A DNA stretch of 64,000 nucleotides, from positions 1,228-65,227 of the forward strand of contig JAICIE010000004.1 in the NCBI GenBank assembly GCA_025924515.1, read 5' to 3'. The notes under the pieces are model-generated. The model did no database searches, was not told the origin of the DNA, and saw only the letters and a list, made by a program, of their open reading frames with translations. The stretch's first letter is position 1. Every line of letters starts with the position of its first letter. Source of the stretch: Jatrophihabitans sp. (GTDB taxonomy: Bacteria > Actinomycetota > Actinomycetes > Mycobacteriales > Jatrophihabitantaceae). The position numbers and the translations under genes were made by a program. Positions 1,994 to 19,336 of the stretch are shown piece by piece.

Positions 1994-2923
1994 TCAGGAC
2001 GCCACGCGGGTGCCGACGCGGCCGGCGAGGGCGGCGGCGATCTGGTCGAGCGACGTGATCGCCGCCCACCGCCCGCTCGCGGCGACGCGACAGGCCGCCT
2101 CGACTTTCGGGCCCATGCTGCCCTCGGCGAACTCGCCGCTGTCGGCCAGCGCGCGAAGCTCCGCGGCGGAAACCTCGCCGAGCGGGCGCGCGGCCGCGCT
2201 ACCCCATCCCACGACCGCGGCGTCGACGTCCGTGGCGATCACCAAACCGTCCGCGTCGAGGGCCTCGGTCAAGAGCGCAGCCGTGAGGTCCTTGTCGATG
2301 ACTGCCTCGACGCCGTAGAGAGAGCCGTCGTCGTGGCGCACCACCGGAACGCCGCCACCGCCCGCGCACACCACCACGTATCCCGCGTCGACAAGGGTCC
2401 GTGCGGCCGCCGCGTCGAGGCACTGCCGGGGCTCGGGAGACGCGACGACCCGGCGCCAGCCACGCTCGCCGCGGTCCTGCCACACCTGCCCGTGCTGGAT
2501 CATCACCCGCGCCTCCTCGGCGGTGAGATACCGCCCGATCGGTTTGGAGGGTGCGGCGAAGTGCGGATCGTCGCGGTCGACGAGCGTGCGGCTGACCAGG
2601 GCCGCGGTGCGTTTGCCGACACCGCGCCGGGCGAGTGCCGCGTCGAGCGCGTCGAGAACCAGCACGCCGATCGTCCCCTGCGTCTGGGCGCCGCACCAGT
2701 CCAAGGGCACCGGCGGGACGACCCCGGCCGCGAGCTCGTTCTTGACCAGGAGGTTGCCGACCTGCGGTCCGTTGCCGTGGGTCAGGACGACCTCGGTGCC
2801 CGCGGCCACAAGATCGGCGACCGTCTCCATCGCGGCCGTGATGGCCCGCTGCTGGTCGTCCGGGCGCGCAGTGCCGTCGGGGGCGGTCATCGCGTTTCCG
2901 CCGAGCGCGATCACGACCCGCAC
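1994..2923 (-). CDS. arcC: Carbamate kinase
   Basis: [12 protein letters not shown]...[15 protein letters not shown]...[10 protein letters not shown]...VIDKD; full-length 309 aa. Starts 3 nt after the upstream gene's stop. Confidence 0.9.
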
Positions 2924-2926
2924 CGC

Positions 2927-4090
2927 TCAGCCGTCCTCGTCGAGCCAGGCCCGGATGGCCGCTCCGTGCTGGTCGAGGGTGGGCGGCGCGAGGTTCTCCT
3001 CCCGCGCGCCGCCGTACCCCGCGTCGTCCAGCCGCAGGGGTGGGCCAGGCAGGCTGATCCGCCCGAGCGCGGGGTGCGCGACGTCGATCAGGAGTCCTTG
3101 TGATCGCGTCTGGTCCCACTCGTAGACCTCGGCCAGGTTGCGTACCTTTCCGGCCGGGACGCCGAGATCGGCCAGGCGCTGCAGCAGATCAAGGCTCGGG
3201 TAACGGCTGAACGCCTCGTTCACGGCAGCGATCACCGCATCGCGGTCACGGACCCGCTGCGGATTGGTCGCCCACTCCTCGCGGTCGAGTCCGAACGGTG
3301 ACGCGAACCTGCGCCACAGGCCGTCGCTGCCCACCGAGATCTGCACCGGGCCGTCGGCCGCCGAGAACAGTCCGTACGGGCAGATCGACGGATGGTGCCC
3401 GCCCGTCGCCTGCGGGACCTCGCCGGCGACCGTGTACCGGGTGCCCTGGAAGGCGTGCACCCCCACGATCGCGGCGAGCAGGCTGGTGCGCACGACCCGG
3501 CCGCGTCCGGTGCGTGCGCGCTCGTGCAGCGCCGCAACCGCACCGTACGCGCCGTACATCCCGGCGAGCAGGTCGGCGATGGGCACGCCGACACGCGTGG
3601 GCTGCTCCTGCGACGGTCCGGTCAGCGACATCAACCCGCCTTCGCCCTGGGCGATCTGGTCGTATCCGGCGCGTCCGCCCTCCGGCCCGTCGTGCCCGAA
3701 GCCGCTGATCGACAGGATGACAAGGCCGGGATTCAGCCCATGCAGCCGGCGGACGCCGAAGCCGAGCCGGTCCAGCACCCCGGGACGGAAGTTTTCGACC
3801 AGGACGTCAGCCTTCCTGATCAGCCGGGCCAAAACGTCACGACCCTCTTCGCTCTTGAGGTCGAGTGCGATCGATTCCTTGTTGCGGTTGCAGGACAGGA
3901 AGTAGGTCGAGTGCTCGTTCCCGTCGCTGCCCGGCACGAACGGCGGCCCCCACCCGCGGGTGTCGTCGCCCCCGTCCGGCGACTCGACCTTGATGACGCG
4001 GGCGCCCAGGTCGCCCAGCATCATGGCGGCGTGCGGGCCGGCGAGCGCGCGCGACAGGTCCACCACCAGGACGTCCTCGAGCAGGCTCAC
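2927..4090 (-). CDS. Type III (CaiB/BaiF/Frc family) CoA-transferase
   Basis: ORF 2927..4297 trimmed to GTG 4090 (VSLLEDVLVVDLSRALAGPHAAMMLGDLGARVIKVESP...VLVENFRPGVLDRLGFG). The GTGA start overlaps the hyuB-like stop. Confidence 0.85.
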   Translation of the reverse strand: MSLLEDVLVVDLSRALAGPHAAMMLGDLGARVIKVESPDGGDDTRGWGPPFVPGSDGNEHSTYFLSCNRNKESIALDLKSEEGRDVLARLIRKADVLVENFRPGVLDRLGFGVRRLHGLNPGLVILSISGFGHDGPEGGRAGYDQIAQGEGGLMSLTGPSQEQPTRVGVPIADLLAGMYGAYGAVAALHERARTGRGRVVRTSLLAAIVGVHAFQGTRYTVAGEVPQATGGHHPSICPYGLFSAADGPVQISVGSDGLWRRFASPFGLDREEWATNPQRVRDRDAVIAAVNEAFSRYPSLDLLQRLADLGVPAGKVRNLAEVYEWDQTRSQGLLIDVAHPALGRISLPGPPLRLDDAGYGGAREENLAPPTLDQHGAAIRAWLDEDG

Positions 4091-5943
4091 CGGTAGTCGA
4101 CCTCCGCGGCAGGGCGGCCGCCGGAGAGCCGGGCGTACCCCGGTCCGCGGTCGAAGAATGCCTCGCCGCCGCGCGCCGCACGCATCTCGCGCCGCAACTG
4201 CTCGGTGGCCGGCAGGTGCACGCCCGGGTCGTCGTCGGGTCCGTCGACCACGACCCCGTACTCGTCCCGGGCCGCCGCTCGCGACACCTTGCGCCACAGG
4301 ACGTCCCGGGCCACCAGGGCTGGATCCCGCTCGAGCGGGTCGCCCCAGCCGCCCCCGCCGGTCGTCCGGATGCGGATGGTGGTGCCCGCCGGGACGAACT
4401 CGGCGTCGACCAGAGCGGCGACGTCGCGCTCGGTCGGGCCGCCGGGATCGACAGTGACTTGGAACGGGCGGCCGGCCCGTCCGCCCTTGACGCCCCAGCA
4501 GGACAAGATGGAGCGGTCGGCGATGGACATGAAGTGCGCGTCGCGGAGCATGCGCAGATGCTTCTCGTAGCCGAGACCGCCGCGGAACCTGCCTGCGCCG
4601 CCGGAATCGACCGCGAGACCGAGCCGCTCGACGACGAACGGAAACCGCGCCTCGGTGAACTCCGTCGGCAGGTTCCGCGAGTCGGGCACGACGTGGATGG
4701 TGTCCTCGCCGTCGGCGTAATGACGGCCGCCGGATCCGCCGCCGAGGACCTCGCGCATCAGGTACGGCGCACCGGAGCGGTCGGTGCCGTAGACGCCGGT
4801 GTAGCGGATCGTCTCCTGATCGGCGGGCATACGCCCGTCCACGGCTTTGGCCAGCACTCCGGCCAGCACACCGAGCAGGCGGAGGATCACGAACGTCCTC
4901 GCGTTGGTGGGCGCCGGGAACACCGGGGTGAGCAGGGTTCCCGGCGGTGGGAAACGCATCTCGATCAGCGCTACCACGCCCTCATTCACGTCCAACTCGG
5001 CCATCCGCTCGGGGGAGTCCGCGAGGTTGCGGAGGATCGGCGCGAGCCACTTCTTGAGGAAGTTGCCGTCGGCGTAGTCGCCGCAGTGGTTGATCGGACC
5101 CTTGGCCTGCGGGGAGGTCCCGGCGAAGTCGAGAACGATGTTGTCCGCCGTGCGCGTCAGCGTGATCCGCTGCCGGTGCAGCATCGGCGGGTCGACCCCG
5201 TCGTGCTCGGCGTAGTCCTCCCACGTCCACGTCCCTTCCGGGATCTTGGCCAGGATCTCGCGGCGGAATGTCTCGGTGGTGTTGGCGACGATTGCGTCGA
5301 AGGAGGACTCGATCGTGTCCCGTCCGTACCGGTCGAACAGTTCGGCCAGCCGGCGCGAGCCCATCAGGCAGGCCGAACACTCGGCGTCGAGATCGGCGGC
5401 CAGCGAGTCCGGCATGCGGGAATTGCGCGTCATGATGGCGAGCGCGGCGCGGTTCGGCACCCCGCGATCCCACAACTTGATCGGCGGGACCATCAGTCCT
5501 TCCTCGAAGACGCTGCGCGCAGAGCTGGGCATGGAGCCCGGGACCGAGCCGCCGATGTCGTCGTGATGCCCGAAAGCCTGCACGAAGGCGACCACCTCAC
5601 CGCCGTGGAACACCGGCACGGTCACGCACAGGTCCGGAAGGTGGCCGATCCCGCCCTCGGAGAGGTAGACGTCGTTGTGGAAGAACACATCGCCGGGGCG
5701 CATCGTGTCGATCGGGAAGTCGCGGGCGACGGGGTGCACCAGAGCGCTGTACGACCGCCCGGTCAGCTTGCGCAGAATGCGGTCGTGTATCCCGGCCCGA
5801 TAATCGTGCGCATCCCTGATCATCGGCGAGCGGGACGTGCGTCCGATGGCGGTCTCGACCTCCTTCTCTATCGACGCGAGGCTGCCCTGCACGATCTCGA
5901 GGACGACCGGATCGACCGCCGAGTTGCCGGTGAGGGTCTTCAT
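4087..5943 (-). CDS. Hydantoinase B / oxoprolinase family protein (HyuB-like)
   Basis: ORF 4087..6129 trimmed to ATG 5943 (MKTLTGNSAVDPVVLEIVQGSLASIEKEVETAIGRTSRSPMIRDAHDYRAGI...). ATGA overlap with the hyuA-like stop. Confidence 0.85.
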   Translation of the reverse strand: MKTLTGNSAVDPVVLEIVQGSLASIEKEVETAIGRTSRSPMIRDAHDYRAGIHDRILRKLTGRSYSALVHPVARDFPIDTMRPGDVFFHNDVYLSEGGIGHLPDLCVTVPVFHGGEVVAFVQAFGHHDDIGGSVPGSMPSSARSVFEEGLMVPPIKLWDRGVPNRAALAIMTRNSRMPDSLAADLDAECSACLMGSRRLAELFDRYGRDTIESSFDAIVANTTETFRREILAKIPEGTWTWEDYAEHDGVDPPMLHRQRITLTRTADNIVLDFAGTSPQAKGPINHCGDYADGNFLKKWLAPILRNLADSPERMAELDVNEGVVALIEMRFPPPGTLLTPVFPAPTNARTFVILRLLGVLAGVLAKAVDGRMPADQETIRYTGVYGTDRSGAPYLMREVLGGGSGGRHYADGEDTIHVVPDSRNLPTEFTEARFPFVVERLGLAVDSGGAGRFRGGLGYEKHLRMLRDAHFMSIADRSILSCWGVKGGRAGRPFQVTVDPGGPTERDVAALVDAEFVPAGTTIRIRTTGGGGWGDPLERDPALVARDVLWRKVSRAAARDEYGVVVDGPDDDPGVHLPATEQLRREMRAARGGEAFFDRGPGYARLSGGRPAAEVDYR

Positions 5944-8042
5944 CGCGCCGCCCGTGCGGTTATGATCAGGCTTCCGTACTTGTCGACACGGGCGGTGAAC
6001 CCCGGGTGCAGCGGGACGGTCGAGCCGTATTCCTCGATGACGGCAGGCCCGTGGACGACCGCGCCCGCCGACAGGTCGCCGCGCCGGAAGAGAGGCGTCA
6101 CTTGGTAGCCGCCCGCGGGATCGAAGCACACGGACCGCGCACCGGTCGGCAGGTCGGTGCCGCCACCGGCGAGCGGGCGCAGCTCAGGACGGCTGATCGG
6201 TCCCACGCCGGTCACGCGGAGGTTCACCCATTCGACCTGCTGTCTGGCGTCGTCGCGGAAGTCGTATCCGTAGAGGGCGCGGTGCGCGTCGTGGAACGCG
6301 GCGGCGACGAGCTGCGGGTAAAGCTCGCCGTCCGCAACCGGCACCCGCACCTCGAACGCCTGGCCGAAGTAGCGCAGGTCGGCCGACCGCAGGAAGCGCT
6401 GCTCCTCGGGGTGGAAGCCCTCGACCGCCAGCGCGTCGGCGGCGTCGCGCTGCAGGTCGGCGAACACGTCCTCGACCGCCGCCGGATCGAGATCGGCGTG
6501 CCGCGATACGGCCGTCCGCACGTAGTCGTTCTTGACATCGACGGTCAGCAGGCCGAACGCGCTGACGTTGCCGGGGTTCGGCGGCACGAGGACGGAGTGC
6601 AGACCGAGAATGTCGACCAATCGGCACAGCAGCAGCGGTCCCGACCCACCGAACGTGACCAAGGTGAAGTCGCGGACGTCCAGCCCGCGCTTCACGGTCG
6701 TCTGTCGGAGCGCGTTCGCCTGGTTCCACGCCGAGATCTCCAGGATGCCCGCCGCGCAGGCTGCGGTGTCGAGTCCGAGCCGGCCGGCGAGCTGTTCGAT
6801 GCCGTCTTCCGCGGCCGCGAACTCGAGCGGGACTTCACCGCCGAGAAGGGACGGCGGAATCCGCCCCATGACGAGGTGGGCGTCGGTAACGGTCACGTCC
6901 CGGCCGCCGCGCGAATAGCACAGCGGGCCCGGGTCGGCTCCTGCGGATGCGGGGCCGACCTTCAGGGTTCCTTCCGGTGACAACCAGGCGATCGAGCCGC
7001 CTCCGGCGCCGACGGTGACCACGTCGAGCATCGGAATCTTCGACGGGTAGCTGCCGATCGACCCCTCGGTGGTGAGCGTCGGCTCGCCGTCGAGAACGAC
7101 GGCCACGTCGGTGGAGGTGCCGCCGCCGTCGCAGGTCAGCACCCGGTCGAACCCGGCGGTACGGGCGATGAGGGCAGCGCCGAGCGCTCCGGCGGCAGGT
7201 CCGCTGAGGACCGTCGTGATCGGTTGGTGCACGACCTCGTCGGCCGACAGCACGCCGCCGTTCGACTTCATGACGTAGAACGGGAGCGGTCGGTCGCTCA
7301 ACTGCTCGAGCCGCGAGCTGATCGATCGGACGTAGCGGGCCACCCGCGGCTTGACCGCCGCGTCGACGAGCGTGGTCATCGACCGTTCGTATTCGCGGTA
7401 TTCCCGCAACACCTCGCTGGAGATCGAGACGACGGCGTCCGGGTGCTCACGCGCCAACACGTCCTGCATGCGGCGCTCGTGGTGCGGGTTGGCGTAGGAG
7501 TGCAGGAAGCAGACGCCGAGGGTATTCACCCCCCGGGCCCGGAACCACCGGGCGACCGCGACCGCGCCGTCCTCGTCGAACGGCCGGATCTCGGCGCCGG
7601 TGAAGTCCAGCCGTCCGCCGACCGTCTTCACCAGGTGGGCGGGAACGATGCGGTCGGGCTTCACCCAGAAATACGAGTTCCCGTAACCGTCCGGCACCGA
7701 TTGCCGCGCGATCTCCAGAATGAACTCATACCCCTCGGTGGTGATGAATCCGAGCGTGCCCAGCTTGCCCTCGAGCAGCTGGTTCGTCGCCACCGTCGTG
7801 CCGTGGCTCACCGAGTGGAGCTGGTCGCCGGCCGCGCCCAGCTGCTCCAGGATCTTCGTCAGACCGGCGAGGAAGGCATCGGCCGGATCTTCCGGCGTGG
7901 ACGGAGTCTTGGTGCTGGTGAGCAGGCCGGTCGACTCGTCGAAGGCAACCACGTCGGTGAACGTGCCGCCGGTGTCGATGCCGATCCGCAGCCGCCCGGT
8001 GGCGGTCGCCGGCCGACTGTCCGGCCTCGTCACGGGTGGCAT
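5940..8042 (-). CDS. Hydantoinase A / oxoprolinase family protein (HyuA-like, ASKHA ATPase fold)
   Basis: RIGIDTGGTFTDVVAF N-terminal motif and a later CDGGGTSTDV motif; 700 aa. Confidence 0.85.
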   Translation of the reverse strand: MPPVTRPDSRPATATGRLRIGIDTGGTFTDVVAFDESTGLLTSTKTPSTPEDPADAFLAGLTKILEQLGAAGDQLHSVSHGTTVATNQLLEGKLGTLGFITTEGYEFILEIARQSVPDGYGNSYFWVKPDRIVPAHLVKTVGGRLDFTGAEIRPFDEDGAVAVARWFRARGVNTLGVCFLHSYANPHHERRMQDVLAREHPDAVVSISSEVLREYREYERSMTTLVDAAVKPRVARYVRSISSRLEQLSDRPLPFYVMKSNGGVLSADEVVHQPITTVLSGPAAGALGAALIARTAGFDRVLTCDGGGTSTDVAVVLDGEPTLTTEGSIGSYPSKIPMLDVVTVGAGGGSIAWLSPEGTLKVGPASAGADPGPLCYSRGGRDVTVTDAHLVMGRIPPSLLGGEVPLEFAAAEDGIEQLAGRLGLDTAACAAGILEISAWNQANALRQTTVKRGLDVRDFTLVTFGGSGPLLLCRLVDILGLHSVLVPPNPGNVSAFGLLTVDVKNDYVRTAVSRHADLDPAAVEDVFADLQRDAADALAVEGFHPEEQRFLRSADLRYFGQAFEVRVPVADGELYPQLVAAAFHDAHRALYGYDFRDDARQQVEWVNLRVTGVGPISRPELRPLAGGGTDLPTGARSVCFDPAGGYQVTPLFRRGDLSAGAVVHGPAVIEEYGSTVPLHPGFTARVDKYGSLIITARAAR

Positions 8043-8662
8043 CAGCAGCGCCTGCCGATGCGTCCCACCGCGGTCCCGACGAGCACGCCGGCCAGCGCGA
8101 CCACTGCACCGACGAGCACGCCGCGGAGAAAGGTGTCCTGGCCGGCGGCAACCGGGGCGGGCGCCGAGAAGACACCGGCGGGCGGTGCCGGCGCCGCGGC
8201 CGTCTCGGCCGGTACCGCCTCCTTGCCGGATAGGACGTCGTCGACCGCGGCGAAGAACTCTGCGGCCATCCGCCTGCCGACCGCGGCGAGCATCCGCTGT
8301 CCGACGCCGGCGACCATGCCGCCGACGACGGCGTCGGCGTCATACCGCACGAGGGTCTGCGAGTCGCCGGCCGGATCGAGAAGGACGCGGACGTCGGTGC
8401 GAACGGTGCCCGGCGCGCCCGCTCCCGAGGCCGTCATGACGAACGAGTGCGGTTCCTTCTTGTCCGACAGCGCCACCTCGCCGGTGTACGTGCCCTTGAC
8501 CGCCGCAACGCCCGCGGTGACGGTCATGGAATAGGCATCCGCTCCCGTCGTCTCGAGCCGTTCGCAGCCGGGGATGGTCCGCACCAAGACCGCCGGGTCG
8601 TTCAACGCCCGCCAGACCCGGTCGACCGGCGCGTGCAGGGTCGCCTCACCGCTGACCTTCAT
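8042..8662 (-). CDS. CoxG-like SRPBCC protein with C-terminal membrane anchor
   Basis: MKVSGEATLHAPVDRVWRALNDPAVLVRTIPGCERLE... (CoxG/SRPBCC). Hydrophobic C-terminal segment FLRGVLVGAVVALAGVLVGTAVG. ATGA overlap with the large-subunit stop. Confidence 0.8.
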   Translation of the reverse strand: MKVSGEATLHAPVDRVWRALNDPAVLVRTIPGCERLETTGADAYSMTVTAGVAAVKGTYTGEVALSDKKEPHSFVMTASGAGAPGTVRTDVRVLLDPAGDSQTLVRYDADAVVGGMVAGVGQRMLAAVGRRMAAEFFAAVDDVLSGKEAVPAETAAAPAPPAGVFSAPAPVAAGQDTFLRGVLVGAVVALAGVLVGTAVGRIGRRC

Positions 8663-11037
8663 CCGGTTTCCTTCGAACGACGCAGCTCCCAGAGTTCGCT
8701 GGGAGAAATCGGCATGCTCGTGAGCACAATGCCTTCCGCGTCCTCGATCGCCGACGCGATCGCGGCGGCACCCGGAATCACTCCCGCCTCCCCGGCTCCC
8801 TTGATGCCGAGCGGATTCATGGGGGAGGGAGTTTCGAGGTGGTCGATCTCGACGGAGGACGGAACCTCACTGGCATAGGGCATCAAAAAGTCCATGAATG
8901 ACGCATTCTGCAGCTGACCGGCATCGTCATAAGCCATCCGCTCGTACAAGGCACCGGCCACGCCCTGGGCGACGCCGCCGTGTATCTGTCCCTCGACGAT
9001 GCGCGGGTTGATCAGCGTGCCGCAGTCGTGCACCACGCAATAGCGCAGGATTTTAACCTCGGCGGTGTCAGGATCGGTCTCGACCACCACCGCATGCATA
9101 CCGTTGGCGAAGGTCGACTGCATCGGCGAGAAATAGTCCCGGCCCTCGAGCCCGGGCTCGTCGTCCTCGGGCACCGGCGGTTTCGCCGGGTCACCGCTCG
9201 CGAACTGCGTGGCTGCCTGCGCGGCGGTGTCGAACGCGTAGCGAAGCGGGTTGGAGAGCACGGCGACGGTGCCGAGCGAGATCTCAGCGCCGGGCGCGCC
9301 GACGACGCGAACGACCCCGTCGACGATCTCGAGGTCGTCGGGGTTCGCCTCGAGAGCGTCGCCGGCCACCCGGAGCGCCTTCTCCTTCGCGGCCCGGGCG
9401 GCGAGAGCGATCGCCGAGCCGCTCATCACCGCGGCTCGGGAGGCGAACGTGCCGACCGCGTAACCGAATCGGCGGGTGTCACCGGTGACCACCTCGACGT
9501 CGTCGAGCGGAACGCCGAGTTCGTCGGCCACGATCTGCGCGAAGACGGTCTGGTGACCTTGTCCTTGCGACGTCAGTCCCGTGGCAACCTTCACCTTCCC
9601 GGACGTTTCGATGACGACGTGGCCGCCCTCGTAGGGGCCCACCCCGGTGCCCTCGACATAACAGGCCAACCCGATCCCGATTCGACGGCCCTCGGCCCGG
9701 GCCGTCTCGCGCGCCTGCTCGAAATCATCCCAGCCGACGAGCTGCTTCAGCTTCGCCAAGGACGCGGGGAAGTCCCCGGAGTCGTAGATCAGCGGCCGGC
9801 CGTCCTGGAACACGAGGCCGTGGTCGTAGGGCATTTCGTGTGGTTCGATGAAGTTGCGTTCCCGCACGGTGGTGCGGTCGAGGCCGAGCTCGCGGGCGAT
9901 GGCGTCCATGACGCGCTCCATCACGAACACGCCCTGAGGACGGCCGGCCCCGCGGTAGGGGGTGACGATCACCGTGTTCGTGTAGAGCGAGTCGAAGGTG
10001 ACTCGGTATGCGCCCGGCTTGTACGGGCCGAGCAGCTGCGTCGACGTGATGATCGGCACGATCAGTCCGTACGGGATGAAGGCGCCGTGGTCGTGCCAGA
10101 AACGCACATCGAGCCCGAGCAGTCGCCCGTCGTCGTCGAAACCGACCCGCACCGAGTGCAGCTGGCCGCGTTCGTGGGCGCTGGCGACGAAGTGCTCCCG
10201 GCGATCTTCGACGAACTTGACGGGGCGGGCGAGCAGGCGTGCCGCCCAGGGCACGAGCACCTCCTCCGGCCACGGATGCATGATCTTGACTCCGAACCCG
10301 CCGCCGACGTCGGGGGTGATCACGTCGACGTCGACCAATGGGAGGTCGAGCTTGGCCGCGACCGCAGCGCGCACCCCGGTCGACGTCTGCGTCGACGACC
10401 AGATCCGCATGCGGCGCGCTTCGGCGTCCCAGCGCGCCAGCACGCCGCGTCCCTCCAACGGGGTCGACGCGGAGCGCTCGATGGCCAGGTCGAGGGACAG
10501 GACGTGCGGCGCGGCGGCCAGCGCCGCGTCGACGTCACCTGTCGATTGCGTCATCCGGGCGGCCAGATTGCCCGGAACGTCCTCGTGCACCAAGTGCGCG
10601 GCGGCACGCGCCGCGGCGATGCCGACGACGGCCGGCAGCGGCTCGTACCGGACGGCGATGCGTTCGGCGGCGTCCTCGGCGAGGTAGCGGTCCTCGGCGA
10701 CGACCATGGCGACCGGCGCGCCGACGTGGTGCACCTTGTCCCGGGCGAGCGCGTACGGGGTGCGCCCGTGCGTCAGGGTGGGGTGCGGGATGAGCAGTGG
10801 CAACGGCTCGGCGAGCCGGTCCGGGAGGTCGTCGTAGGTGTAGATGGCCACCAAGCCTTCGACGTCGAGCGCCGCGCTGACGTCGACGTCGGTGATCCGC
10901 GCGTGGGCGTGCGGGCTGCGGACGAACGCCGCTGCGAGCGCGTCGTGACCGAGGTCGTCGAGGTAGGCACCGGCACCGCGCAGCAGCCGCTCGTCCTCGA
11001 CTCGGGGGATCGGCTGGCCGAACCAGCGGGTGCTCAT
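8659..11037 (-). CDS. Molybdopterin-binding large subunit of a xanthine dehydrogenase/CoxL-family hydroxylase (form-II type, AYRGAGR-like active-site loop)
   Basis: ORF 8659..11385 trimmed to ATG 11037 (MSTRWFGQPIPRVEDERLLRGAGAYLDDL). Contains VTPYRGAGRPQG rather than the CO-dehydrogenase AYXCSFR signature. About 792 aa. Confidence 0.85.
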   Translation of the reverse strand: MSTRWFGQPIPRVEDERLLRGAGAYLDDLGHDALAAAFVRSPHAHARITDVDVSAALDVEGLVAIYTYDDLPDRLAEPLPLLIPHPTLTHGRTPYALARDKVHHVGAPVAMVVAEDRYLAEDAAERIAVRYEPLPAVVGIAAARAAAHLVHEDVPGNLAARMTQSTGDVDAALAAAPHVLSLDLAIERSASTPLEGRGVLARWDAEARRMRIWSSTQTSTGVRAAVAAKLDLPLVDVDVITPDVGGGFGVKIMHPWPEEVLVPWAARLLARPVKFVEDRREHFVASAHERGQLHSVRVGFDDDGRLLGLDVRFWHDHGAFIPYGLIVPIITSTQLLGPYKPGAYRVTFDSLYTNTVIVTPYRGAGRPQGVFVMERVMDAIARELGLDRTTVRERNFIEPHEMPYDHGLVFQDGRPLIYDSGDFPASLAKLKQLVGWDDFEQARETARAEGRRIGIGLACYVEGTGVGPYEGGHVVIETSGKVKVATGLTSQGQGHQTVFAQIVADELGVPLDDVEVVTGDTRRFGYAVGTFASRAAVMSGSAIALAARAAKEKALRVAGDALEANPDDLEIVDGVVRVVGAPGAEISLGTVAVLSNPLRYAFDTAAQAATQFASGDPAKPPVPEDDEPGLEGRDYFSPMQSTFANGMHAVVVETDPDTAEVKILRYCVVHDCGTLINPRIVEGQIHGGVAQGVAGALYERMAYDDAGQLQNASFMDFLMPYASEVPSSVEIDHLETPSPMNPLGIKGAGEAGVIPGAAAIASAIEDAEGIVLTSMPISPSELWELRRSKETG

Positions 11038-11510
11038 CGCGCCAACTCGGCGGCGCGCAGCACGGCGCGCACGATGTTCTGATAGCCGGTGCAGCGGCAG
11101 AGGTTCCCGCCGATCATGTCCCGCGCCTGCTGCTCGTCGGGATCGGGGTTGTCGCGCAGCCCCGCGGTCACGGTCGTCAGGAATCCTGGGGTACAGAAGC
11201 CGCACTGCAGGCCGTGGCAGTCGCGGAAAGCCTGCTGGACGGCAGACAGCGCGCCGTCGGGCTCGGCGAGGCCTTCGACGGTGGTGATGTCGTTGCCCTC
11301 GACCGACACCGCCAACAGCAGGCAGGACCGCATCGGGAGCCCGTCGACCAGGACCGTGCACGCCCCGCACACCCCGTGTTCGCAACCGACGTGGGTGCCG
11401 GTCAGCCGCAGGTCGTGGCGCAGGCAGTCGCTGAGCAGCCGCCGGGCGGGGATGGACAACGGGCGGGGCACGCCGTTCACGGTCAGCACCACGTCGATCA
11501 GTTCGCTCAT
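11034..11510 (-). CDS. [2Fe-2S]-binding small subunit (CoxS-like) of the hydroxylase
   Basis: ORF 11034..11786 trimmed to ATG 11510. Cys clusters: GCEHGVCGACTV and CGFCTPGF...CRCTGY. 158 aa. ATGA overlaps on both sides. Confidence 0.9.
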   Translation of the reverse strand: MSELIDVVLTVNGVPRPLSIPARRLLSDCLRHDLRLTGTHVGCEHGVCGACTVLVDGLPMRSCLLLAVSVEGNDITTVEGLAEPDGALSAVQQAFRDCHGLQCGFCTPGFLTTVTAGLRDNPDPDEQQARDMIGGNLCRCTGYQNIVRAVLRAAELAR

Positions 11511-12370
11511 GCAGCCGCCGCCCCCGAGGCCCTGGCCGCCGCGAGAGCCTGCGTGAGCGCCCGCTCGGTGAGCACTCCGGCCAGAGCGCGTCGATAGTCG
11601 GCGCTTGCGTGCAGGTCCGCCTCCGGCTGCACCTGCGCCCGCGCCGCCTCGCCGGCGGCGCGCGGGTCTGCGGCCTGGTCGGTCAGTTCGAGAACGAGCG
11701 GGGTCGGGGCGACGGAGAGGTAGGCGCAGCGCGCGGCCGCCACCGCGCCGTCGTCCTTCAGTCGGACGAAAGCGGCCACGCCGCAAACCGCGTAGTCCCC
11801 GGCACGGCGTGACACCTCGACGAACGCGGTACCGCTGGAAGGCGGGAGAACCGGCAGCGCCGCCTCCACCGCAAGCTCGTCATCGCGAACGTCCGACTCC
11901 AGCGGGCCGAGGAAGAGCTCCCCGGCGGTCACGTTGCGTTCGCCTCGCGAGGACCGGACGCGCAGGCTGCCGCCGAGCAGCGCCAGCACCGCGGTCATCT
12001 CGCCCGCGGGGTCGGCGTGGACGATGCTGCCGACCGTGGTGCCGCGATTCCGGATCGTCGCGTGGGCCACCAGGCGCAACGCCTGCCGCAGCAGCGGCTG
12101 CGCCGCGCCGGCGGCCGGGTCGGCCAGCACGCGGGCGTGCCGGGCCAACGCGCCGATCCGCACGACGTCGCCGTCGACGCGCACGTAGTCGAGCTCGCGC
12201 AGCCGGTTGATGTCGACCAGCGCGGACGGATGCGCCAACCGCATGGACACGAGCGGGATGAGGGACTGGCCGCCCGCGAGAACTTTCGCCCCGCTGCCCA
12301 GCGTCCCGAGCACCTCGACCGCGCTGTCGACCTGCTCGGGACGCCGGTAGTCGAACGGGGCCGGCTTCAC
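11507..12370 (-). CDS. FAD-binding medium subunit (CoxM-like) of the hydroxylase
   Basis: MKPAPFDYRRPEQVDSAVEVL...AKVLAGGQSLIPLVSMRL; 287 aa. The GTGA start overlaps the permease stop. Confidence 0.85.
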   Translation of the reverse strand: MKPAPFDYRRPEQVDSAVEVLGTLGSGAKVLAGGQSLIPLVSMRLAHPSALVDINRLRELDYVRVDGDVVRIGALARHARVLADPAAGAAQPLLRQALRLVAHATIRNRGTTVGSIVHADPAGEMTAVLALLGGSLRVRSSRGERNVTAGELFLGPLESDVRDDELAVEAALPVLPPSSGTAFVEVSRRAGDYAVCGVAAFVRLKDDGAVAAARCAYLSVAPTPLVLELTDQAADPRAAGEAARAQVQPEADLHASADYRRALAGVLTERALTQALAAARASGAAAA

Positions 12371-13860
12371 AGGCGTCTCGTCGTCTCTGGGGGCGTCGTC
12401 TCGGCGAACGGCGACACCTCGCCGTCGGGGGTCTCGACGTTACCGGTCGAGAGCATCGTGCCGCCCTCGTACGCGCGGCCACGGATCTGCGGTTCCCGTA
12501 GCTCCGGCGGGGCAAGCCAACGCATCGCGTGATAGGCGATAAGGACGACGATCGTGCCGAGGGCGATGCCGCCGATGGAGAAGTTGTCCGTGAACTTCAA
12601 GGTCACGCCGCCGATGCCTGCGATGATCCCGGCCGCCAGCGGCACGAGGTTCACCGGGTTGGCGAAGTCGACGCGGTTCTCCACCCAGATCTTCACACCG
12701 AGCAGCCCGATCATCCCGTAGAGGATCACAGTGATGCCGCCGAGTACGCCGCCCGGAGTGCCGTCGACGATGGCGCCGAACTTCGGGCAGAACCCGAGCA
12801 GGATGGCGACGAGCGCGGCAACGTAGTAGGCCGCCGTCGAGTAGATGCGGGTGGCCGCCATGACCCCGATGTTCTCGGCGTAGGTGGTAGTCGGGGATCC
12901 GCCCACGACCGATGCGATCACCGTGCCCACGCCGTCGCCGATGAATGCCCGGCCGAGGGAGGGGTTGAGGTCCTCCCCGGTCATCTCGGAGACCGCTTTC
13001 ACGTGGCCGGCATTCTCCGCCAGCAGCGCGATGACGCTGGGCAGCACCAGCAGGATGAATGCGCCGGAGAAGCTTGGCAGGTGCCAGCCCACGACGGCGT
13101 CCTTGCCGGCATGGGAAAAGGTCGATCGGGCAGGGAAGCCGATCCAGTCCGCCGCTCGGACGCCCGACCAGTTCACCCGGTCGTGCAGCACCGGTTTCGG
13201 CCCGGTGGGCAGCACCGAGTTGATCTTCCCGAAGATGTGGTCGAACGCCCACGAGATCAGGTAGCCGAAGAGAAGTCCCAGGAAGATGGCGATCCGTGAC
13301 CAGAAGCCGCGGAACAGCACCGCTGCGCAGATGACGAACGCCATCGTGAGCAGCGCTACCCACTGGTCCTGCGGCCAATAGGTGTTGGCAACGACCGGCG
13401 CGAGGTTGAAACCGATCAGCAGCACCACGGCGCCGGTGACGGCTGGCGGCAGAACCTTCTGGACAATCTCGCCCCCGAGGAAATGCACGACGACGCCGAC
13501 AACTGCGAGGACCAGACCGGCAATGAGGATGGCGCCGGTGACGTCCTTCGAGTTGCCGCCCTGAGCCCGGATGGCGGTCACCGCCGCGACGAACGACGCC
13601 GATGTGCCGAGATAGGACGGGATCCTGCCGTTGACGATCAGCAGGAAGAGGATCGTCGCCACCCCGGACATCATCACCGCGAGGTTGGGGTTGAGGCCCA
13701 TGATGACCGGGAACACGAACGTCGCGCCGAACATGGCGACGACGTGCTGGGCGCCCAGGCCGATCGTCTTTCCCCAGGACAACCGTTCGCCCGGACCGAC
13801 GACCTCTCCCGGTGGGGGCGTCCTGCCTCCGTACACCAACCTCCAGCCGAATGCCGACAT
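12367..13860 (-). CDS. NCS2-family nucleobase:cation symporter (uracil/xanthine permease-like)
   Basis: ORF 12367..13956 trimmed to ATG 13860. GLGAQHVVAMFGATFVFPVIMG and ENIGVMAATRIYS motifs, with multiple TM segments. Confidence 0.85.
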   Translation of the reverse strand: MSAFGWRLVYGGRTPPPGEVVGPGERLSWGKTIGLGAQHVVAMFGATFVFPVIMGLNPNLAVMMSGVATILFLLIVNGRIPSYLGTSASFVAAVTAIRAQGGNSKDVTGAILIAGLVLAVVGVVVHFLGGEIVQKVLPPAVTGAVVLLIGFNLAPVVANTYWPQDQWVALLTMAFVICAAVLFRGFWSRIAIFLGLLFGYLISWAFDHIFGKINSVLPTGPKPVLHDRVNWSGVRAADWIGFPARSTFSHAGKDAVVGWHLPSFSGAFILLVLPSVIALLAENAGHVKAVSEMTGEDLNPSLGRAFIGDGVGTVIASVVGGSPTTTYAENIGVMAATRIYSTAAYYVAALVAILLGFCPKFGAIVDGTPGGVLGGITVILYGMIGLLGVKIWVENRVDFANPVNLVPLAAGIIAGIGGVTLKFTDNFSIGGIALGTIVVLIAYHAMRWLAPPELREPQIRGRAYEGGTMLSTGNVETPDGEVSPFAETTPPETTRRL

Positions 13861-14002: not shown

Positions 14003-15697
14003 TCACAAACCGCGCATTTGCAGCACCCGGAGCGCGAGAGCGATGTCCAGGCGCAGGTCGGGGTTCGTCATGAACTGCCCGACGATCGACTCGAGTTTGC
14101 CGATGCGGTAGCGCAGCGTGTTGTAGTGGAAGTGCAGGATCCGGGCCGTCTCGGCGACATTGCAGTTCGTGTCGATCAGCACCTGCAGCGTGCGCCGGAG
14201 ATCGGTCGACTCAGGCCGATCGGTCCCGAGCGACCCGAGCACCTCGGCGGCGAACGAGCGCAGCTCCTCGCTGTCGGTGACCAGGGACAGCAGCCGATGG
14301 ACGCCGAGGCTGTCGAAGTGCGCGATGGCTCCGCGCCCACGCGTCCGCCGGCCCACGACGAGCGCTTTGCGGGCCTGGTCGTACGCGGCCGGCAGGCCGT
14401 CCGGTGATCGGACGACCCGGCTGACTCCGGCGGAGAAGGAACGCCGGCCGCCGCCGCGATCTCCGGTCACCGCGGCGACAAGCTCTGCCACCGTGGCCTG
14501 GGCGGCCGCCTCGGTGGCAGGAACCACCGCCACGATCTCCTGGCTGATCCCCACCACCGGAACAGCCCGGTCGCGGGCCGCGACCACCTGCTGCCACGCC
14601 GAGGTGAGCCGATCGTGGGGCGTGCGTCCGGTGAGCGGAGAGCCGTCGTCGAGATCGTCGAGTTGCGCGACCAGGACGACCAGAGGCCGGCGGATGTCCC
14701 AACCAAGCGCCGCGCAGTGGGCGGCGACCTGGTCGGGGGGTCCGGCCGTCTCGGTGAGCGCGTCGCGCAGGAAGTCGCCGCGGAACTTCGACTCGACGGC
14801 GGCGACGGCCAACTCCTTGGTGATCGCCAGCGCCGCGACGGTGCCGGCGCGGTCAAGTGACTGCACGGCGGCCGTGCCGAGTCCGCCGACGGGGGCGTAG
14901 GCGACGATGCGGCCGTGCTCGGTGCGTCCGGCGCCGATGTCCACGACGAGCAACTGTCCGTCGGCGCCCGGGATCGACTGCACCCCCGGCCGGACGCGCT
15001 CCACCAAGAACCGCCCGGAGGGGTCGAACAACTGCAGGGCGTCGAACGCCGCCAGGTCGTCGGAGGCACCCGCGGTCGCCCTGACCCGCCCGTCCGGGGT
15101 ACAGACGAGGACGGCCGCGGCGAGCGCCCGGGCGACCTCGTCGGCGATCTGCGGCAGCCCACCACCGTCGAGCACGACCGTCGTGAGGGCGCGGTGCAGC
15201 CGGTCGGCGGCGTCGAGCGCGACCGCCTGCCGGTCGGCGAGCGCGGTGAAAACCTCGCTCATGACCTCGCCGAAGCCGACGTCGGCCGGAAGGCAGAGCA
15301 CCGGGAAGCCGAGCTCGTCGGCCGCGGCGAGCATGGCGAACGGGAGCGTGTCGAGATAGCGGCCCGGTTTCACGCCGAGCGCGGCAACCCCGCGGGCCAC
15401 GAGGGCCCGGACGAACCCGACCAGATCGTCCTCGTCGAAGGGGCGTCCGGTGTCCGGATGGCGCAGCAGGTAACCGGCAACCAGCAGCAACTCGTCCGGC
15501 TCGACCTCCGGCAGCTCGTCCGGAACCTCGATGAGGTTCACCCGAGAGATCGATCCGTCGAGCCCGGCCCGGCCCGCGGCGACCTCCGCGCTCCGCATGC
15601 TCGGCAGCCCGACGAGGTCGCGAACGGTGATGCGGTATTCCCCCGACGCTGGCAAGTCCTGACGGCGCGCGCGGCGAGCGTTGGCAACACCTTCCAT
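14003..15697 (-). CDS. PucR/CdaR-family transcriptional regulator (purine catabolism regulator-like)
   Basis: ORF 14003..16048. The N-terminal 117 codons are Arg/Pro-rich junk, so I trimmed to ATG 15697 (MEGVANARR...ITVRDLVGLPSM...). C-terminal PucR HTH: CNVAETARILHFHYNTLRYRIGKLE. The exact start is uncertain. Confidence 0.75.
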   Translation of the reverse strand: MEGVANARRARRQDLPASGEYRITVRDLVGLPSMRSAEVAAGRAGLDGSISRVNLIEVPDELPEVEPDELLLVAGYLLRHPDTGRPFDEDDLVGFVRALVARGVAALGVKPGRYLDTLPFAMLAAADELGFPVLCLPADVGFGEVMSEVFTALADRQAVALDAADRLHRALTTVVLDGGGLPQIADEVARALAAAVLVCTPDGRVRATAGASDDLAAFDALQLFDPSGRFLVERVRPGVQSIPGADGQLLVVDIGAGRTEHGRIVAYAPVGGLGTAAVQSLDRAGTVAALAITKELAVAAVESKFRGDFLRDALTETAGPPDQVAAHCAALGWDIRRPLVVLVAQLDDLDDGSPLTGRTPHDRLTSAWQQVVAARDRAVPVVGISQEIVAVVPATEAAAQATVAELVAAVTGDRGGGRRSFSAGVSRVVRSPDGLPAAYDQARKALVVGRRTRGRGAIAHFDSLGVHRLLSLVTDSEELRSFAAEVLGSLGTDRPESTDLRRTLQVLIDTNCNVAETARILHFHYNTLRYRIGKLESIVGQFMTNPDLRLDIALALRVLQMRGL

Positions 15698-15735: not shown

Positions 15736-16455
15736 GTGGAGCTGGACGCGTCCTGCAGCGTCCTCGCCGCCCCGCTTCTCGACGGTCCGGTGCGGCAACT
15801 GCCCGTGCTCGGCGCTGGGCCCGCGGCGCTGTATCTCGACGCCGGCGCCAGCGTGGTGGCCGTCCTCTCGGATCACGCGGTGCAACTCCCCCGTTCGGTG
15901 CGCGTCGCGACCGCCTCGCTGACCGGACTCCGGCCGGACGCGTCGGTGCGCGTCGGCGACGGCGCACTCTCCTGGCTCTCGGGGGGCCGAGCGGTCCGGG
16001 TGCGGGTGGTGCGGCGCTGGTTGCCCGGGCGCGTGCCCTCGGTGGCACCCCGGGGCGAGCGGGTGCGCGAACTGACGGCGGCCGTGGCCGTTCCCGCGGT
16101 CGAGGTCGCCGAGCTACTCGGGCGCGGCCCGGGGCTGACGCCGAGCGGTGACGACGTCCTGGCCGGACACCTGCTCGGCTGCCGAGCGTTCGGGATCGCC
16201 GGCGAGCCGCTGCGCCGCTCGGTCCTCGCGCTGGCCACCACCCGCACGACGGCGTTGTCCGCGGACCTGCTGCGGCTGGCGGCTGAGGGCTGGTGCATTC
16301 CCCAAGCCGCCGCGATCATCGCGGCACTCGGCCGGGAGCGTCCGGATCCGACGGCCCTGCAGGCGTTGATCGGCGTCGGGTCGTCCTCGGGCTCCGCCCT
16401 GGCCGCGGGGATAGCTGCCGCTGCCGCGCAGGTCGTTCTGGGCGCGGCCGCATGA
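15736..16455 (+). CDS. DUF2877 protein (E. coli YlbF/AllH-like)
   Basis: 239 aa with the family-typical GRGPGLTPSGDDVLAG motif. ATGA overlap with the fdrA-like start. Confidence 0.7.
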   Translation: MELDASCSVLAAPLLDGPVRQLPVLGAGPAALYLDAGASVVAVLSDHAVQLPRSVRVATASLTGLRPDASVRVGDGALSWLSGGRAVRVRVVRRWLPGRVPSVAPRGERVRELTAAVAVPAVEVAELLGRGPGLTPSGDDVLAGHLLGCRAFGIAGEPLRRSVLALATTRTTALSADLLRLAAEGWCIPQAAAIIAALGRERPDPTALQALIGVGSSSGSALAAGIAAAAAQVVLGAAA

Positions 16456-17939
16456 GCGCGGCCGGCGGTCCGGACGTCGAGTACGTCGAGGCGCGCCGCG
16501 GCGCCTACGCGGACTCGGTCACTCTGCTGCAGGTGACCCGGCGGGTGGCGGACACCCCCGGAGTGCGCGGCGCGCTGGTGGCCATGGCAACCGACCTCAA
16601 CCTCGACCTGGCGCGCGGGATGGGTTTCTCCGTTCCGGAGTCCGCGGGACCCAACGACCTTCTCATCGCGGTTCGAGCGGAGGACGAGGCGGCGCTGGCA
16701 GCGGCGAAGGACGCGGTACTCGCGGCGCTCACCGCGCCCGCCGGCGCGACGGCGGCCCCGACGGATGTCCCGCCCGCGACGACGGCATCCGCGCTGCGCC
16801 GCGAACCGGCCGACCTCGTCCTGGTGTCGGTCCCGGGCCCCTCCGCGTTCGCGGAAGCGGCCGACGCACTCGACGCCGGCTGCGACGTCATGATCTTCAG
16901 CGACAACGTCCCGGTGGAACAGGAGGTCGCGCTCAAGCGCCGTGCGCTGTCCGAGGGACGGCTGGTCATGGGTCCGGACTGCGGCACCGCGGTCGTCGGC
17001 GGGATCGGCCTGGGTTTCGCCAACGCGGTCGGCCCGGGCCCGGTGGGGCTGGTGGCCGCGTCCGGAACGGGCGCTCAGCAACTGATGTCCCTGCTCGACG
17101 AGGCGGGCGTCGGGATCAGCGCGTGTCTCGGCGTCGGCGGACGCGACCTCTCCGCGGCGGTCGGCGGGTTGGCGACGGTGTCCGCCCTCGATCTCCTCGA
17201 CGCCGACCCGGCCACCGAGCTGGTCGTGGTGGTGTCGAAGCCGCCGGCGCAAGAGGTCGCCGACCGGGTGCGCGAGCATGCGGACCGGTTGCGGACGCCG
17301 GTCGTCCTGGGGTTGCTCGGCGAGGGGCAGCCCGACCTCACCGCGCTCGCCGCGTCGGTGCTGCAGCGCCTCGATCGGCCCGCGCCGGAGTGGCCGCGGT
17401 GGACGCCGCGGTCGGTCGCTGACCCGCGCCCGGGCTCGCTGCGCGGCCTCTACTCCGGGGGCACGCTCTGTGACGAGGCGATGCTGCTGGCCGCCGGGTC
17501 GCTCGGCCGCGTCCTCTCGAACATCCCGCTGCGTCCCGACTGGCGGTTGGACCGCACCCTGCGTTCGCCAGGTAACCTGATGATCGACTTCGGAGACGAC
17601 GACCTCACCCGGGGGCGCCCGCACCCGATGATCGACGGGTCCCTGCGCGCCGAGCGCCTCCTGGCCGAGGCCGACGACCCCACCGCGGCGGTGGCTCTAC
17701 TGGACGTCGTCCTGGGGTACGGCGCCGCCGCCGATCCGGCCGCCGACGTGGCCGCTGCGATCGCGAAGGCATGCGCGGCCGGGCTTCGGGTGCTCGTTGC
17801 GCTGGTCGGCACGGCCGGCGATCCGCAGAACCGGGAGGAGCAGGCCGGGCGGCTCGTCGACGCGGGGGCGGAGGTTTTCGCGTCGAACGCGCAGGCTGCC
17901 CGCGCGGCCGTCAGCCTCGTCGCGGGAGCCCGGGAATGA
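16452..17939 (+). CDS. FdrA-family protein (acyl-CoA synthetase/succinyl-CoA synthetase-alpha-like; E. coli FdrA/AllF-like)
   Basis: ORF 16293..17939 trimmed to ATG 16452. Strong resemblance to FdrA as I recall it: DSVTLLQV, VMIFSDNVPVEQEVALK, LVMGPDCGTAV, ASGTGAQQL, GVGGRDLS, VSKPP, GRPHPMID. Confidence 0.8.
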   Translation: MSAAGGPDVEYVEARRGAYADSVTLLQVTRRVADTPGVRGALVAMATDLNLDLARGMGFSVPESAGPNDLLIAVRAEDEAALAAAKDAVLAALTAPAGATAAPTDVPPATTASALRREPADLVLVSVPGPSAFAEAADALDAGCDVMIFSDNVPVEQEVALKRRALSEGRLVMGPDCGTAVVGGIGLGFANAVGPGPVGLVAASGTGAQQLMSLLDEAGVGISACLGVGGRDLSAAVGGLATVSALDLLDADPATELVVVVSKPPAQEVADRVREHADRLRTPVVLGLLGEGQPDLTALAASVLQRLDRPAPEWPRWTPRSVADPRPGSLRGLYSGGTLCDEAMLLAAGSLGRVLSNIPLRPDWRLDRTLRSPGNLMIDFGDDDLTRGRPHPMIDGSLRAERLLAEADDPTAAVALLDVVLGYGAAADPAADVAAAIAKACAAGLRVLVALVGTAGDPQNREEQAGRLVDAGAEVFASNAQAARAAVSLVAGARE

Positions 17940-19336
17940 GTTTGCTGGCCGGCGATCCTCGCGTGTTGAGCGTGGGTGCGGAGCTGTTCGCCGACTCGGT
18001 GCGGGCGCAGGCGGTGACCGTCCGGACTGTCGACTGGCGTCCGCCGATGGCGGGGTCGGAGAACGACCTCGCCCGCGTGCTGGCCGACCCCCGGCGCAGC
18101 GCCGCGAACAGCACGGCCGTGGATCGGATGCTGGCGGTGTCGGCGCGGCTGGTCGACGTCGTGCCGGCCGGCGATCTGCTGGGGCTCGGGCCCTCCGACT
18201 ACCTGCACGCCGGCCCGCCGATCGACTGGGACCGGGCATCGGGACCGCTTCGCGGCGCGCTGATCGGGGCGGCGCTGTTCGAGGGTGTGGCAGCGAGCCC
18301 CGACGACGCCGAGCGGGTGCTGGCCGCGGGCTCGTCGATCAGCCTGGCGCCGTGCCACTCGCGCTCGGCTGTGGGACCGATGGCCGGGGTCGTCTCGCGC
18401 TCGATGTGGATGTTCGTGATCGAGGACGAGGCCACGGGGCGCCGCACCTACTGCTCGCTCAACGAGGGGCTGGGGAAGGTGCTGCGCTACGGCGCGTACG
18501 GGCCCGAGGTGCTCGACCGGTTGCGCTGGATGTCAGCCGTGTTGGGGCCACTGCTGCAGACCGCGCTCCGGGCACGCGGGCCGGTCGACGTCACCGCCCT
18601 TCTCGCGCAGATGGTGCAGATGGGAGATGAGGCGCACAACCGCAACCGCGCAGGAACCCTGATGTTCCTGCGTGAGCTCCTCCCGGCGCTGATCGGCAGC
18701 GGCGCCCCGGCGGGCGACGTGGCCGAGGCGGTCCGGTTCGTCGCGGGCAACGACCACTTCTTCCTCAACCTCGCCATGCCGGCATGCAAACTGGCCCTCG
18801 ACGCTGCACGGGATGTGCCGGGGTCGTCGATGGTCGTGGCCATGGCGCGCAACGGCACCGACTTCGGGATCCAGGTGTCCGGAACCGGCGATCGGTGGTT
18901 TACCGGCCCCGCCCAGGTGCCGGACGGGCTGTTCCTCGGCAACTACGGCCCCGCAGACGCCAACCCGGACATCGGTGATTCAGCGATCACCGAGACGGCG
19001 GGGCTGGGCGGGTTCGCCATGGCGGCGGCGCCCGCGATCGTCCGGTTCGTCGGGGGCGCGGTCGCCGACGCGCTCGCCACCACGTCACGGATGTACGAGA
19101 TCACGCTGGCCGAGCACCCGACGTTCAGCATTCCTGTGTTGGAGTTCCGGGGGACGCCGTGCGGGATCGACGTGACGAAGGTCGTCCGCACCGGGATCCT
19201 GCCGCAGATCAACACCGGAATGGCCGGGCGGGCTGCCGGCACCGGTCAGGTCGGGGCGGGACTGGTCACGCCGCCCGGCTCGGTGTTCGCGGACGCGCTG
19301 CGGGCCTTGGCAGCGGCCGCGCCCGCGGTCTGCTGA
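17936..19336 (+). CDS. DUF1116 protein (E. coli YlbE/AllG-like)
   Basis: ORF 17771..19336 trimmed to ATG 17936 (ATGA overlap with the fdrA-like stop). Assigned from size, position after FdrA and overall similarity as recalled. No single diagnostic motif was verified. Confidence 0.6.
   Translation: MSLLAGDPRVLSVGAELFADSVRAQAVTVRTVDWRPPMAGSENDLARVLADPRRSAANSTAVDRMLAVSARLVDVVPAGDLLGLGPSDYLHAGPPIDWDRASGPLRGALIGAALFEGVAASPDDAERVLAAGSSISLAPCHSRSAVGPMAGVVSRSMWMFVIEDEATGRRTYCSLNEGLGKVLRYGAYGPEVLDRLRWMSAVLGPLLQTALRARGPVDVTALLAQMVQMGDEAHNRNRAGTLMFLRELLPALIGSGAPAGDVAEAVRFVAGNDHFFLNLAMPACKLALDAARDVPGSSMVVAMARNGTDFGIQVSGTGDRWFTGPAQVPDGLFLGNYGPADANPDIGDSAITETAGLGGFAMAAAPAIVRFVGGAVADALATTSRMYEITLAEHPTFSIPVLEFRGTPCGIDVTKVVRTGILPQINTGMAGRAAGTGQVGAGLVTPPGSVFADALRALAAAAPAVC

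Follow-up and report, generated by a model that had tools for sequence, protein, structure and literature searches.

A candidate uracil/thymine dehydrogenase encoded together with a barbiturase in a Jatrophihabitans operon

We analyzed a 64,000-nucleotide stretch of DNA from Jatrophihabitans sp. (assembly GCA_025924515.1, contig JAICIE010000004.1, positions 1,228 to 65,227; hereafter the window), in which a minus-strand operon encodes a three-subunit enzyme resembling the CoxM, CoxS and CoxL subunits of carbon monoxide (CO) dehydrogenase. Judging from its sequence and genomic setting, this CoxMSL enzyme is very probably a uracil/thymine dehydrogenase (EC 1.17.99.4), the candidate molybdenum (Mo)/flavin adenine dinucleotide (FAD)/2x[2Fe-2S] hydroxylase of the oxidative pyrimidine pathway. 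We infer its substrate, product and electron acceptor as follows. The UraA-like permease encoded by the first gene of the operon would import uracil and probably thymine too, after which the Mo centre would, by analogy with the chemistry of the family, hydroxylate C6 with oxygen drawn from water to give barbiturate (or 5-methylbarbiturate). The electrons would pass through two iron-sulfur (Fe-S) clusters to FAD, a route that the domains of the subunits support, and probably from FAD to menaquinone through the tail-anchored protein CoxG. Finally, the barbiturase whose gene closes the operon would open the ring to yield ureidomalonate.

The CoxMSL subunits and the CO dehydrogenase label

The operon is a run of 10 minus-strand genes extending from 13860 to 855, with the permease gene first and the barbiturase gene last; the part at 8659-13860 reaches from the permease ATG to the CoxL stop codon. 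The permease (12367..13860, 497 amino acids) is a member of the NCS2 nucleobase:cation symporters of the uracil type (Pfam Xan_ur_permease, 251 bits). It is followed by the CoxM-like medium FAD-binding subunit (11507..12370, 287 amino acids from a GTG start; Pfam FAD_binding_5, 140 bits, and CO_deh_flav_C, 54 bits), the CoxS-like small iron-sulfur subunit (11034..11510, 158 amino acids; Pfam Fer2_2, 103 bits, and Fer2) and the CoxL-like large molybdopterin subunit (8659..11037, 792 amino acids; Pfam Ald_Xan_dh_C, 93 bits, MoCoBD_1, 272 bits, and MoCoBD_2, 284 bits). An original prediction, made from the letters of the window alone, had placed the permease at the head of the operon with its stop overlapping the start of the FAD subunit, and this overlap is a GTGA junction. 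The CoxM-CoxS, CoxS-CoxL and CoxL-CoxG junctions are each ATGA, and those from CoxG through HyuA and HyuB to the coenzyme A (CoA)-transferase are TGATG, ATGA and GTGA in that order, with two short gaps thereafter. Because CoxMSL is thus encoded in one translationally coupled operon with barbiturase, we count this arrangement in favor of a uracil dehydrogenase. The window is ~70% GC and the assembly is fragmented (3.7 Mb in 253 contigs, 83% complete). Since the genes of the dehydrogenase region gave long, high-scoring domain matches in a frame biased in GC content at third codon positions, chance is ruled out as an explanation for these gene calls.

The CoxL translation contains NTVIVTPYRGAGRPQGVFV, i.e. 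the loop VTPYRGAGRPQG, exactly as the original prediction had quoted it. When CoxL was aligned to the CO dehydrogenase large subunit 1N5W_B, VAYRCSFR fell opposite VTPYRGAGR, such that the copper (Cu)-ligand Cys388 is replaced by Gly, and the Mo-site Gln (in SSTQ) and the catalytic Glu (in GAGE) are kept. We take these two residues to be Gln240 and Glu763 of CO dehydrogenase in the numbering of the 1N5W literature. The residue comparison is confined to the loop, this Gln and this Glu, identity to bovine XDH being too low for transferring its substrate-pocket residues (Glu802, Arg880 and Phe914). All eight cysteines of two [2Fe-2S] clusters are present in CoxS, in the motifs C-x4-C-x2-C-x11-C and C-x2-C-x31-C-x-C. 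With an a/b-hammerhead domain and two domains that bind the molybdenum cofactor, the Gln/Glu pair, the two [2Fe-2S] clusters and an FAD subunit, the predicted enzyme has the full makeup of a three-subunit CoxLMS member of the xanthine oxidase/dehydrogenase (XDH) family.

Databases and the NCBIfam model NF040766 ('CODH_aero_grp5') would nevertheless label CoxL a 'form II' aerobic CO dehydrogenase. In NCBI, JGI and UniRef, all its close relatives bear the name aerobic carbon-monoxide dehydrogenase large subunit or a generic counterpart, CoxL scores 1507 bits against NF040766 (cut-off 950), and the coxMSL order together with coxG resembles cox operons. Against the curated CO dehydrogenase equivalog TIGR02416, in contrast, CoxL reaches 452 bits, below the cut-off of 991. 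Genes of the coxE (VWA_CoxE) and coxF-like (XdhC-type) kinds were absent from the window and were found only on contigs C89 and C19 of the assembly. Moreover, the operon starts with a nucleobase permease and ends with a barbiturase, and the CoxL orthogroup tracks barbiturase across genomes, as described below. Because Gly stands in place of the Cu-binding Cys and no coxE/coxF-type gene lies in the window, CoxL is, on the evidence of its residues, not a Mo-Cu CO dehydrogenase, in agreement with the original prediction, and we consider CO oxidation by this enzyme extremely unlikely. The accompanying claim that no coxDEF genes are present holds for coxE and coxF within the window, a coxD AAA ATPase not having been searched for.

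Compared with the form I Mo-Cu CO dehydrogenases of O. carboxidovorans (1N5W) and M. smegmatis (8UEM, with CoxG 8UDS), the window enzyme shares the three-subunit architecture, the family branch (365-402 bits), the Mo-site Gln, the catalytic Glu and a CoxG partner. It differs from them in carrying YRGAGR rather than YRCSFR, and hence no copper site, and in belonging to an operon for nucleobase catabolism without nearby coxE or coxF. The solved structures nearest to CoxL are instead 6-hydroxypseudooxynicotine dehydrogenase (7DQX, 463 bits) and quinoline 2-oxidoreductase (1T3Q, 437 bits), both of which have a Cys-free YRxxG-type loop and hydroxylate a carbon adjoining a ring nitrogen. PDB matches in the range of 400-460 bits suffice to settle the fold of CoxL. 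However, their full-length alignments to CoxL are far weaker than those within its own orthogroup, and their substrates and gene contexts are unrelated.

The second-best NCBIfam matches of the three subunits are to Sulfolobus glyceraldehyde dehydrogenase (637, 212 and 183 bits), which raises the question of whether CoxMSL could be an aldehyde oxidoreductase whose substrate arises within the pathway. These three scores fall under the respective cut-offs of 790, 350 and 290 bits, and the route from uracil through barbiturate and ureidomalonate to malonate/malonamate is not expected to include an aldehyde. Furthermore, the position of the enzyme at the start of the operon, directly behind a transporter, suits the first step of a pathway, and an aldehyde substrate thus appears to have hardly any chance of being correct.

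Barbiturase and the distribution of the CoxL orthogroup

The AtzD-family gene that closes the operon (855..1961) matched the crystallized barbiturase 5HWE over its full length (684.7 bits, ~83-84% identity), whereas cyanuric acid hydrolases scored 334 bits or less. Its identity to Rhodococcus barbiturases was 84-85% (tblastn). The domain-B arginine of cyanuric acid hydrolases, for which background is given in PMC4051656, lies in an 'SRG' motif that reads 'SNG' both in the window protein and in 5HWE. By these comparisons the gene, which had been predicted to belong to the barbiturase family, encodes a true barbiturase (EC 3.5.2.1) distinct from the cyanuric acid hydrolases.

A scan seeded with barbiturase recovered 80 actinobacterial loci with the common order HyuA-HyuB-(CoA-transferase)-carbamate kinase-barbiturase, and CoxG and CoxL lay upstream wherever the 10-kb flank was long enough. 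Exactly one CoxL with at least 65% identity was present in 41 of the 42 barbiturase-carrying whole genomes, and the orthologue was located ~7-25 kb from the barbiturase gene (bar) in the 15 genomes with a checkable contig match. The orthogroup is tight, its members being 65-85% identical and the next paralogue 47%; within the class-wide sample described next, orthologues reach 72-85%, clearly apart from the paralogues. Among 401 sampled genomes of the class, a CoxL orthologue was found in 89 and a barbiturase orthologue in 90 (about 22%), with both in 85, the CoxL orthologue alone in 4, barbiturase alone in 5 and neither in 307; related genomes in these counts are not independent of each other. 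The counts include three unpublished genomes (G002, G048 and G077), and no claim rests solely on these.

The four genomes with CoxL only are all 75-86% complete. No CoxL orthologue was present in any of the six genomes whose only AtzD homologues are cyanuric-acid-hydrolase-like (39-44% identity). CoxL and barbiturase presence also matches genome by genome within two families, f5 (13/22) and f53, and in a third, f19, the agreement holds with the genes 72-301 kb apart, indicating that the co-occurrence signal is not due to synteny alone.

We also compared loci centred on CoxL from 12 genomes in 8 families. The order permease-CoxM-CoxS-CoxL, with a UraA-like permease preceding the CoxL orthologue, was found in 12/12, followed by CoxG except at locus L085, for which no CoxG match was listed. 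FdrA and AllG genes flanked this unit in divergent orientation in all 12 loci, and a PucR gene adjoined the permease gene in most. In G017 (L030) and in G267, the CoxL orthologue is broken up over two neighbouring open frames, which could result from a frameshift or an assembly error. Recoding at an in-frame TGA, flagged in the G423 and G297 orthologues, was rejected because this TGA is the normal terminal stop codon.

The permease and the Rhodococcus erythropolis locus

The original prediction had assigned the permease to the uracil/xanthine permease family. Its best NCBIfam matches were RutG (343 bits, cut-off 759) and the uracil permease UraA (271 bits, cut-off 477), compared to 155 bits for xanthine permease, with all three scores below the equivalog cut-offs. 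Among solved structures, E. coli UraA entries scored 189-193 bits and UapA 55 bits. Alignment to 3QE7, 5XLS and 8OMZ indicated that Glu241, His245 and Glu290 of UraA are kept in the permease within AENAGH and YAENIGV; these are the uracil-binding residues of UraA. E. coli UraA (3QE7, 5XLS) and RutG are the best structural and family matches of the permease and share its Glu/His/Glu set, but both UraA Phe73 and Gly289, which make main-chain contacts, are Ala in the permease, and the permease is longer (497 versus 429 amino acids), being extended at its N- and C-terminus. These comparisons identify the permease as UraA/RutG-like rather than xanthine-like.

The surroundings of the operon could also suggest a purine (xanthine/hypoxanthine) dehydrogenase in a purine catabolic island under PucR control. 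A PucR-family regulator is encoded upstream of the operon (14003..15697, minus strand; Pfam PucR, GGDEF_2 and HTH_30; start codon uncertain), followed by a divergent AllH/FdrA(AllF)/AllG trio of the oxamate-carbamoyltransferase type (15736..19336, plus strand; Pfam AllH, 79 bits, AllG, 322 bits, and Ligase_CoA; NCBIfam FdrA, 386 bits; starts approximate). Homologues of PucR, AllFGH and carbamate kinase act in purine and allantoin catabolism in E. coli and Bacillus, and xanthine is also carried by NCS2 transporters. However, the XdhA/PucD models scored 260-400 bits against cut-offs of ~780, the permease resembles UraA and not UapA or PbuX, and the co-occurrence described above is with barbiturase. 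Since, in addition, no uricase, allantoinase or allantoicase is found among the genes annotated within the initial 27 kb of the window, we regard a purine substrate as very unlikely.

The oxidative pyrimidine pathway was established, and its barbiturase and ureidomalonase were characterized, in R. erythropolis (PMC3758960, PMC3961730). The genome of R. erythropolis NBRC 15567 encodes only three XDH-family large subunits, and one of these (L019 17359-19881) is the unique best match of the window CoxL. At 65% identity, it lies 5 kb downstream of bar, is the sole bar-linked large subunit of the family and scores 1401 bits against NF040766. The locus opens with genes for XdhC, PucR and a permease. 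Two opposite-strand genes, for a fused carboxyltransferase and a CoA-transferase, come next, and another PucR gene and an unknown gene then precede the genes for Bar, an AS-family amidase, an aminotransferase, a second NCS2 permease, CoxM, CoxS, CoxL, CoxG, HyuA and HyuB. The order permease-CoxM-CoxS-CoxL-CoxG-HyuA-HyuB is therefore shared with the window, and the reaction predicted for the window enzyme is that of the R. erythropolis uracil-thymine dehydrogenase (EC 1.17.99.4), with which the oxidative pyrimidine pathway begins. The enzyme of R. erythropolis JCM 3132 is reportedly a heteromer of three different subunits that accepts dyes and quinones, but not NAD(P), as electron acceptors, a description that would suit the subunit makeup predicted here.

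The two loci differ in the genes around this core. The R. erythropolis locus has the AS-family amidase, the aminotransferase and the fused carboxyltransferase and is without AllFGH or carbamate kinase within 20 kb, whereas the window has AllH/FdrA/AllG and carbamate kinase and no amidase, pointing to a different fate of ureidomalonate. The AS-family amidase directly after bar (L019 11233-12726, plus strand; NF005686, 713 bits) is a candidate for the ureidomalonase gene. The fused AccD/AccA-like carboxyltransferase beside the CoA-transferase (L019 4340-5872, minus strand) could decarboxylate malonyl-CoA.

The original prediction had described the uracil/thymine dehydrogenase as poorly defined genetically. 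That statement is outdated, since Soong et al. 2024 (J Biosci Bioeng 137:413-419, doi 10.1016/j.jbiosc.2024.02.004; cited in PMC12529397) name 'gene identification' for uracil-thymine dehydrogenase in their title. Beyond this title, the literature searched yielded no full text assigning genes to the enzyme, and the name 'uracil-thymine dehydrogenase' is not among the listed members of P0121, the R. erythropolis protein cluster. Taken together, the co-occurrence of the orthogroup with barbiturase, the conserved unit with the permease and the linkage to bar in R. erythropolis all count in favor of a uracil dehydrogenase and support the predicted permease-linked CoxLMS feeding barbiturase. The window genes are most probably orthologous to those of the characterized enzyme.

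Several observations weigh against a uracil dehydrogenase, beyond the public names of the CoxL relatives and the NF040766 score. First, 5 of the 90 barbiturase-positive genomes are without a CoxL orthologue, although three of these are 95-97% complete and G188 is in 2 contigs. Second, the textbook pathway of three enzymes offers no step for HyuAB, so that either the actual substrate or the sequence of reactions could be different. Third, the permease falls under both the RutG and UraA equivalog cut-offs, making it a relative rather than an equivalog. Finally, the genes of Soong et al. 2024 are only presumed to be those of the bar-linked R. erythropolis locus at L019 15813-19881. In G188, a three-subunit XdhA/PucD-like Mo enzyme lies directly after bar (L093 8242-13204), with 29-31% identity to the window CoxL, 511 bits against NF043082, and FdrA and AllG nearby. 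Here another, non-orthologous Mo hydroxylase appears to have taken the place of the dehydrogenase, which suggests that the pathway needs a Mo hydroxylase. No comparable Mo enzyme was found near bar in Pseudonocardia acaciae, G388 or G402.

The second and third of these points would also fit an enzyme whose physiological substrate for hydroxylation is, instead of uracil, another pyrimidine-like N-heterocycle feeding the same pathway, such as a pyrimidone, a uracil substituted at position 5 or an intermediate related to HyuAB. The original prediction had likewise left room for another N-heterocycle. Sequence does not fix substrate specificity, and the nearest solved relatives take quinoline and a nicotine metabolite. 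To our knowledge, however, oxidation of uracil at C6 is the only simple biological source of barbiturate, and the permease retains the Glu/His/Glu set of UraA. Barbiturase also reportedly shows specificity for barbiturate (PMC4051656), and uracil and thymine were the compounds with which the Rhodococcus pathway was defined (PMC3758960). We thus consider such a substrate improbable and uracil or thymine the preferred assignment.

Neighbouring genes and implications

CoxG (8042..8662, minus strand, 206 amino acids) is an SRPBCC protein (Pfam COXG, 84 bits) that matched the M. smegmatis CoxG-family protein 8UDS_D with 44 bits. It ends in a hydrophobic tail anchor (window 8042-8140, minus strand), made up of a hydrophobic helix and then an Arg-rich end, that is found in 26/29 orthologues. 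CoxG probably links the dehydrogenase to membrane and quinone.

HyuA (5940..8042; Pfam Hydantoinase_A with N- and C-terminal domains) and HyuB (4087..5943; Pfam Hydantoinase_B) follow on the same strand and form a pair of the ATP-dependent hydantoinase/oxoprolinase family, with N-methylhydantoinase 7HK5 as their best PDB match (461 bits). HyuA or HyuA-HyuB comes after CoxG in 8/12 CoxL-centred loci, and also in R. erythropolis. Barbiturase is reported not to handle 5-methylbarbiturate, and placing HyuAB in the thymine (5-methylbarbiturate) branch would be a guess. More broadly, CoxMSLG could go beyond the soluble 'uracil dehydrogenase' of textbooks and form a membrane-coupled respiratory module, in which CoxG hands menaquinone to CoxMSL and uracil oxidation feeds electron transport, with HyuAB carrying out the missing step, e.g. 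5-methylbarbiturate ring opening, but we hold this combined scheme to be speculative and rather unlikely.

HyuAB pairs occur in other loci as well (L099 1636-5657, L082 656-4584 and L086 14957-19011). In addition, the variable insert between CoxG and HyuA contains a CN_hydrolase (a nitrilase-superfamily amidase) in two different families (L082 4601-5524, minus strand, and L089 13120-14022, plus strand). This recurrent enzyme could act as an amidase on malonamate or a ureido compound. The window operon contains no CN_hydrolase.

The remaining two genes of the operon encode a family III CoA-transferase (2927..4090, minus strand; Pfam CoA_transf_3) and a carbamate kinase (1994..2923, minus strand; Pfam AA_kinase; subfamily NF009007, 284 bits with a cut-off of 266). 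In the window, AllH/FdrA/AllG adjoin the dehydrogenase module and carbamate kinase adjoins barbiturase, and in family f19 the modules co-occur although they lie 72-301 kb apart. This pattern suggests that ureidomalonate is cleaved phosphorolytically to carbamoyl phosphate, which would replace the amidase route of Rhodococcus.

A perfect GC-rich hairpin (window 13975-14002, GACGAAGGACCGCCGCGTCCTTCGGTC, plus strand), possibly a terminator or an operator, directly follows the stop codon of PucR and lies upstream of the permease gene. A promoter scan detected no sigma-70-like site and fewer terminator-like sites than expected by chance, and such a scan is uninformative at 70% GC in an actinobacterium.

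The dehydrogenase described here belongs to a known enzyme family and is predicted to catalyze a known reaction, and the main value of the analysis is in correcting the CO dehydrogenase label and in drawing attention to CoxG and HyuAB. Since NF040766 (type 'exception', cut-off 950) captures a barbiturase-linked orthogroup that lacks the Cu-ligand Cys, its label is probably a systematic misannotation, and annotation-based surveys of CoxL-like genes may count a pyrimidine enzyme as a CO oxidizer. The analysis also yields a testable gene set for the electron acceptor, namely CoxG and menaquinone. Lastly, with about 22% of the 401 sampled genomes carrying these genes, the oxidative pyrimidine route would be far more widespread among soil actinobacteria than expected of a pathway reputed to be rare.

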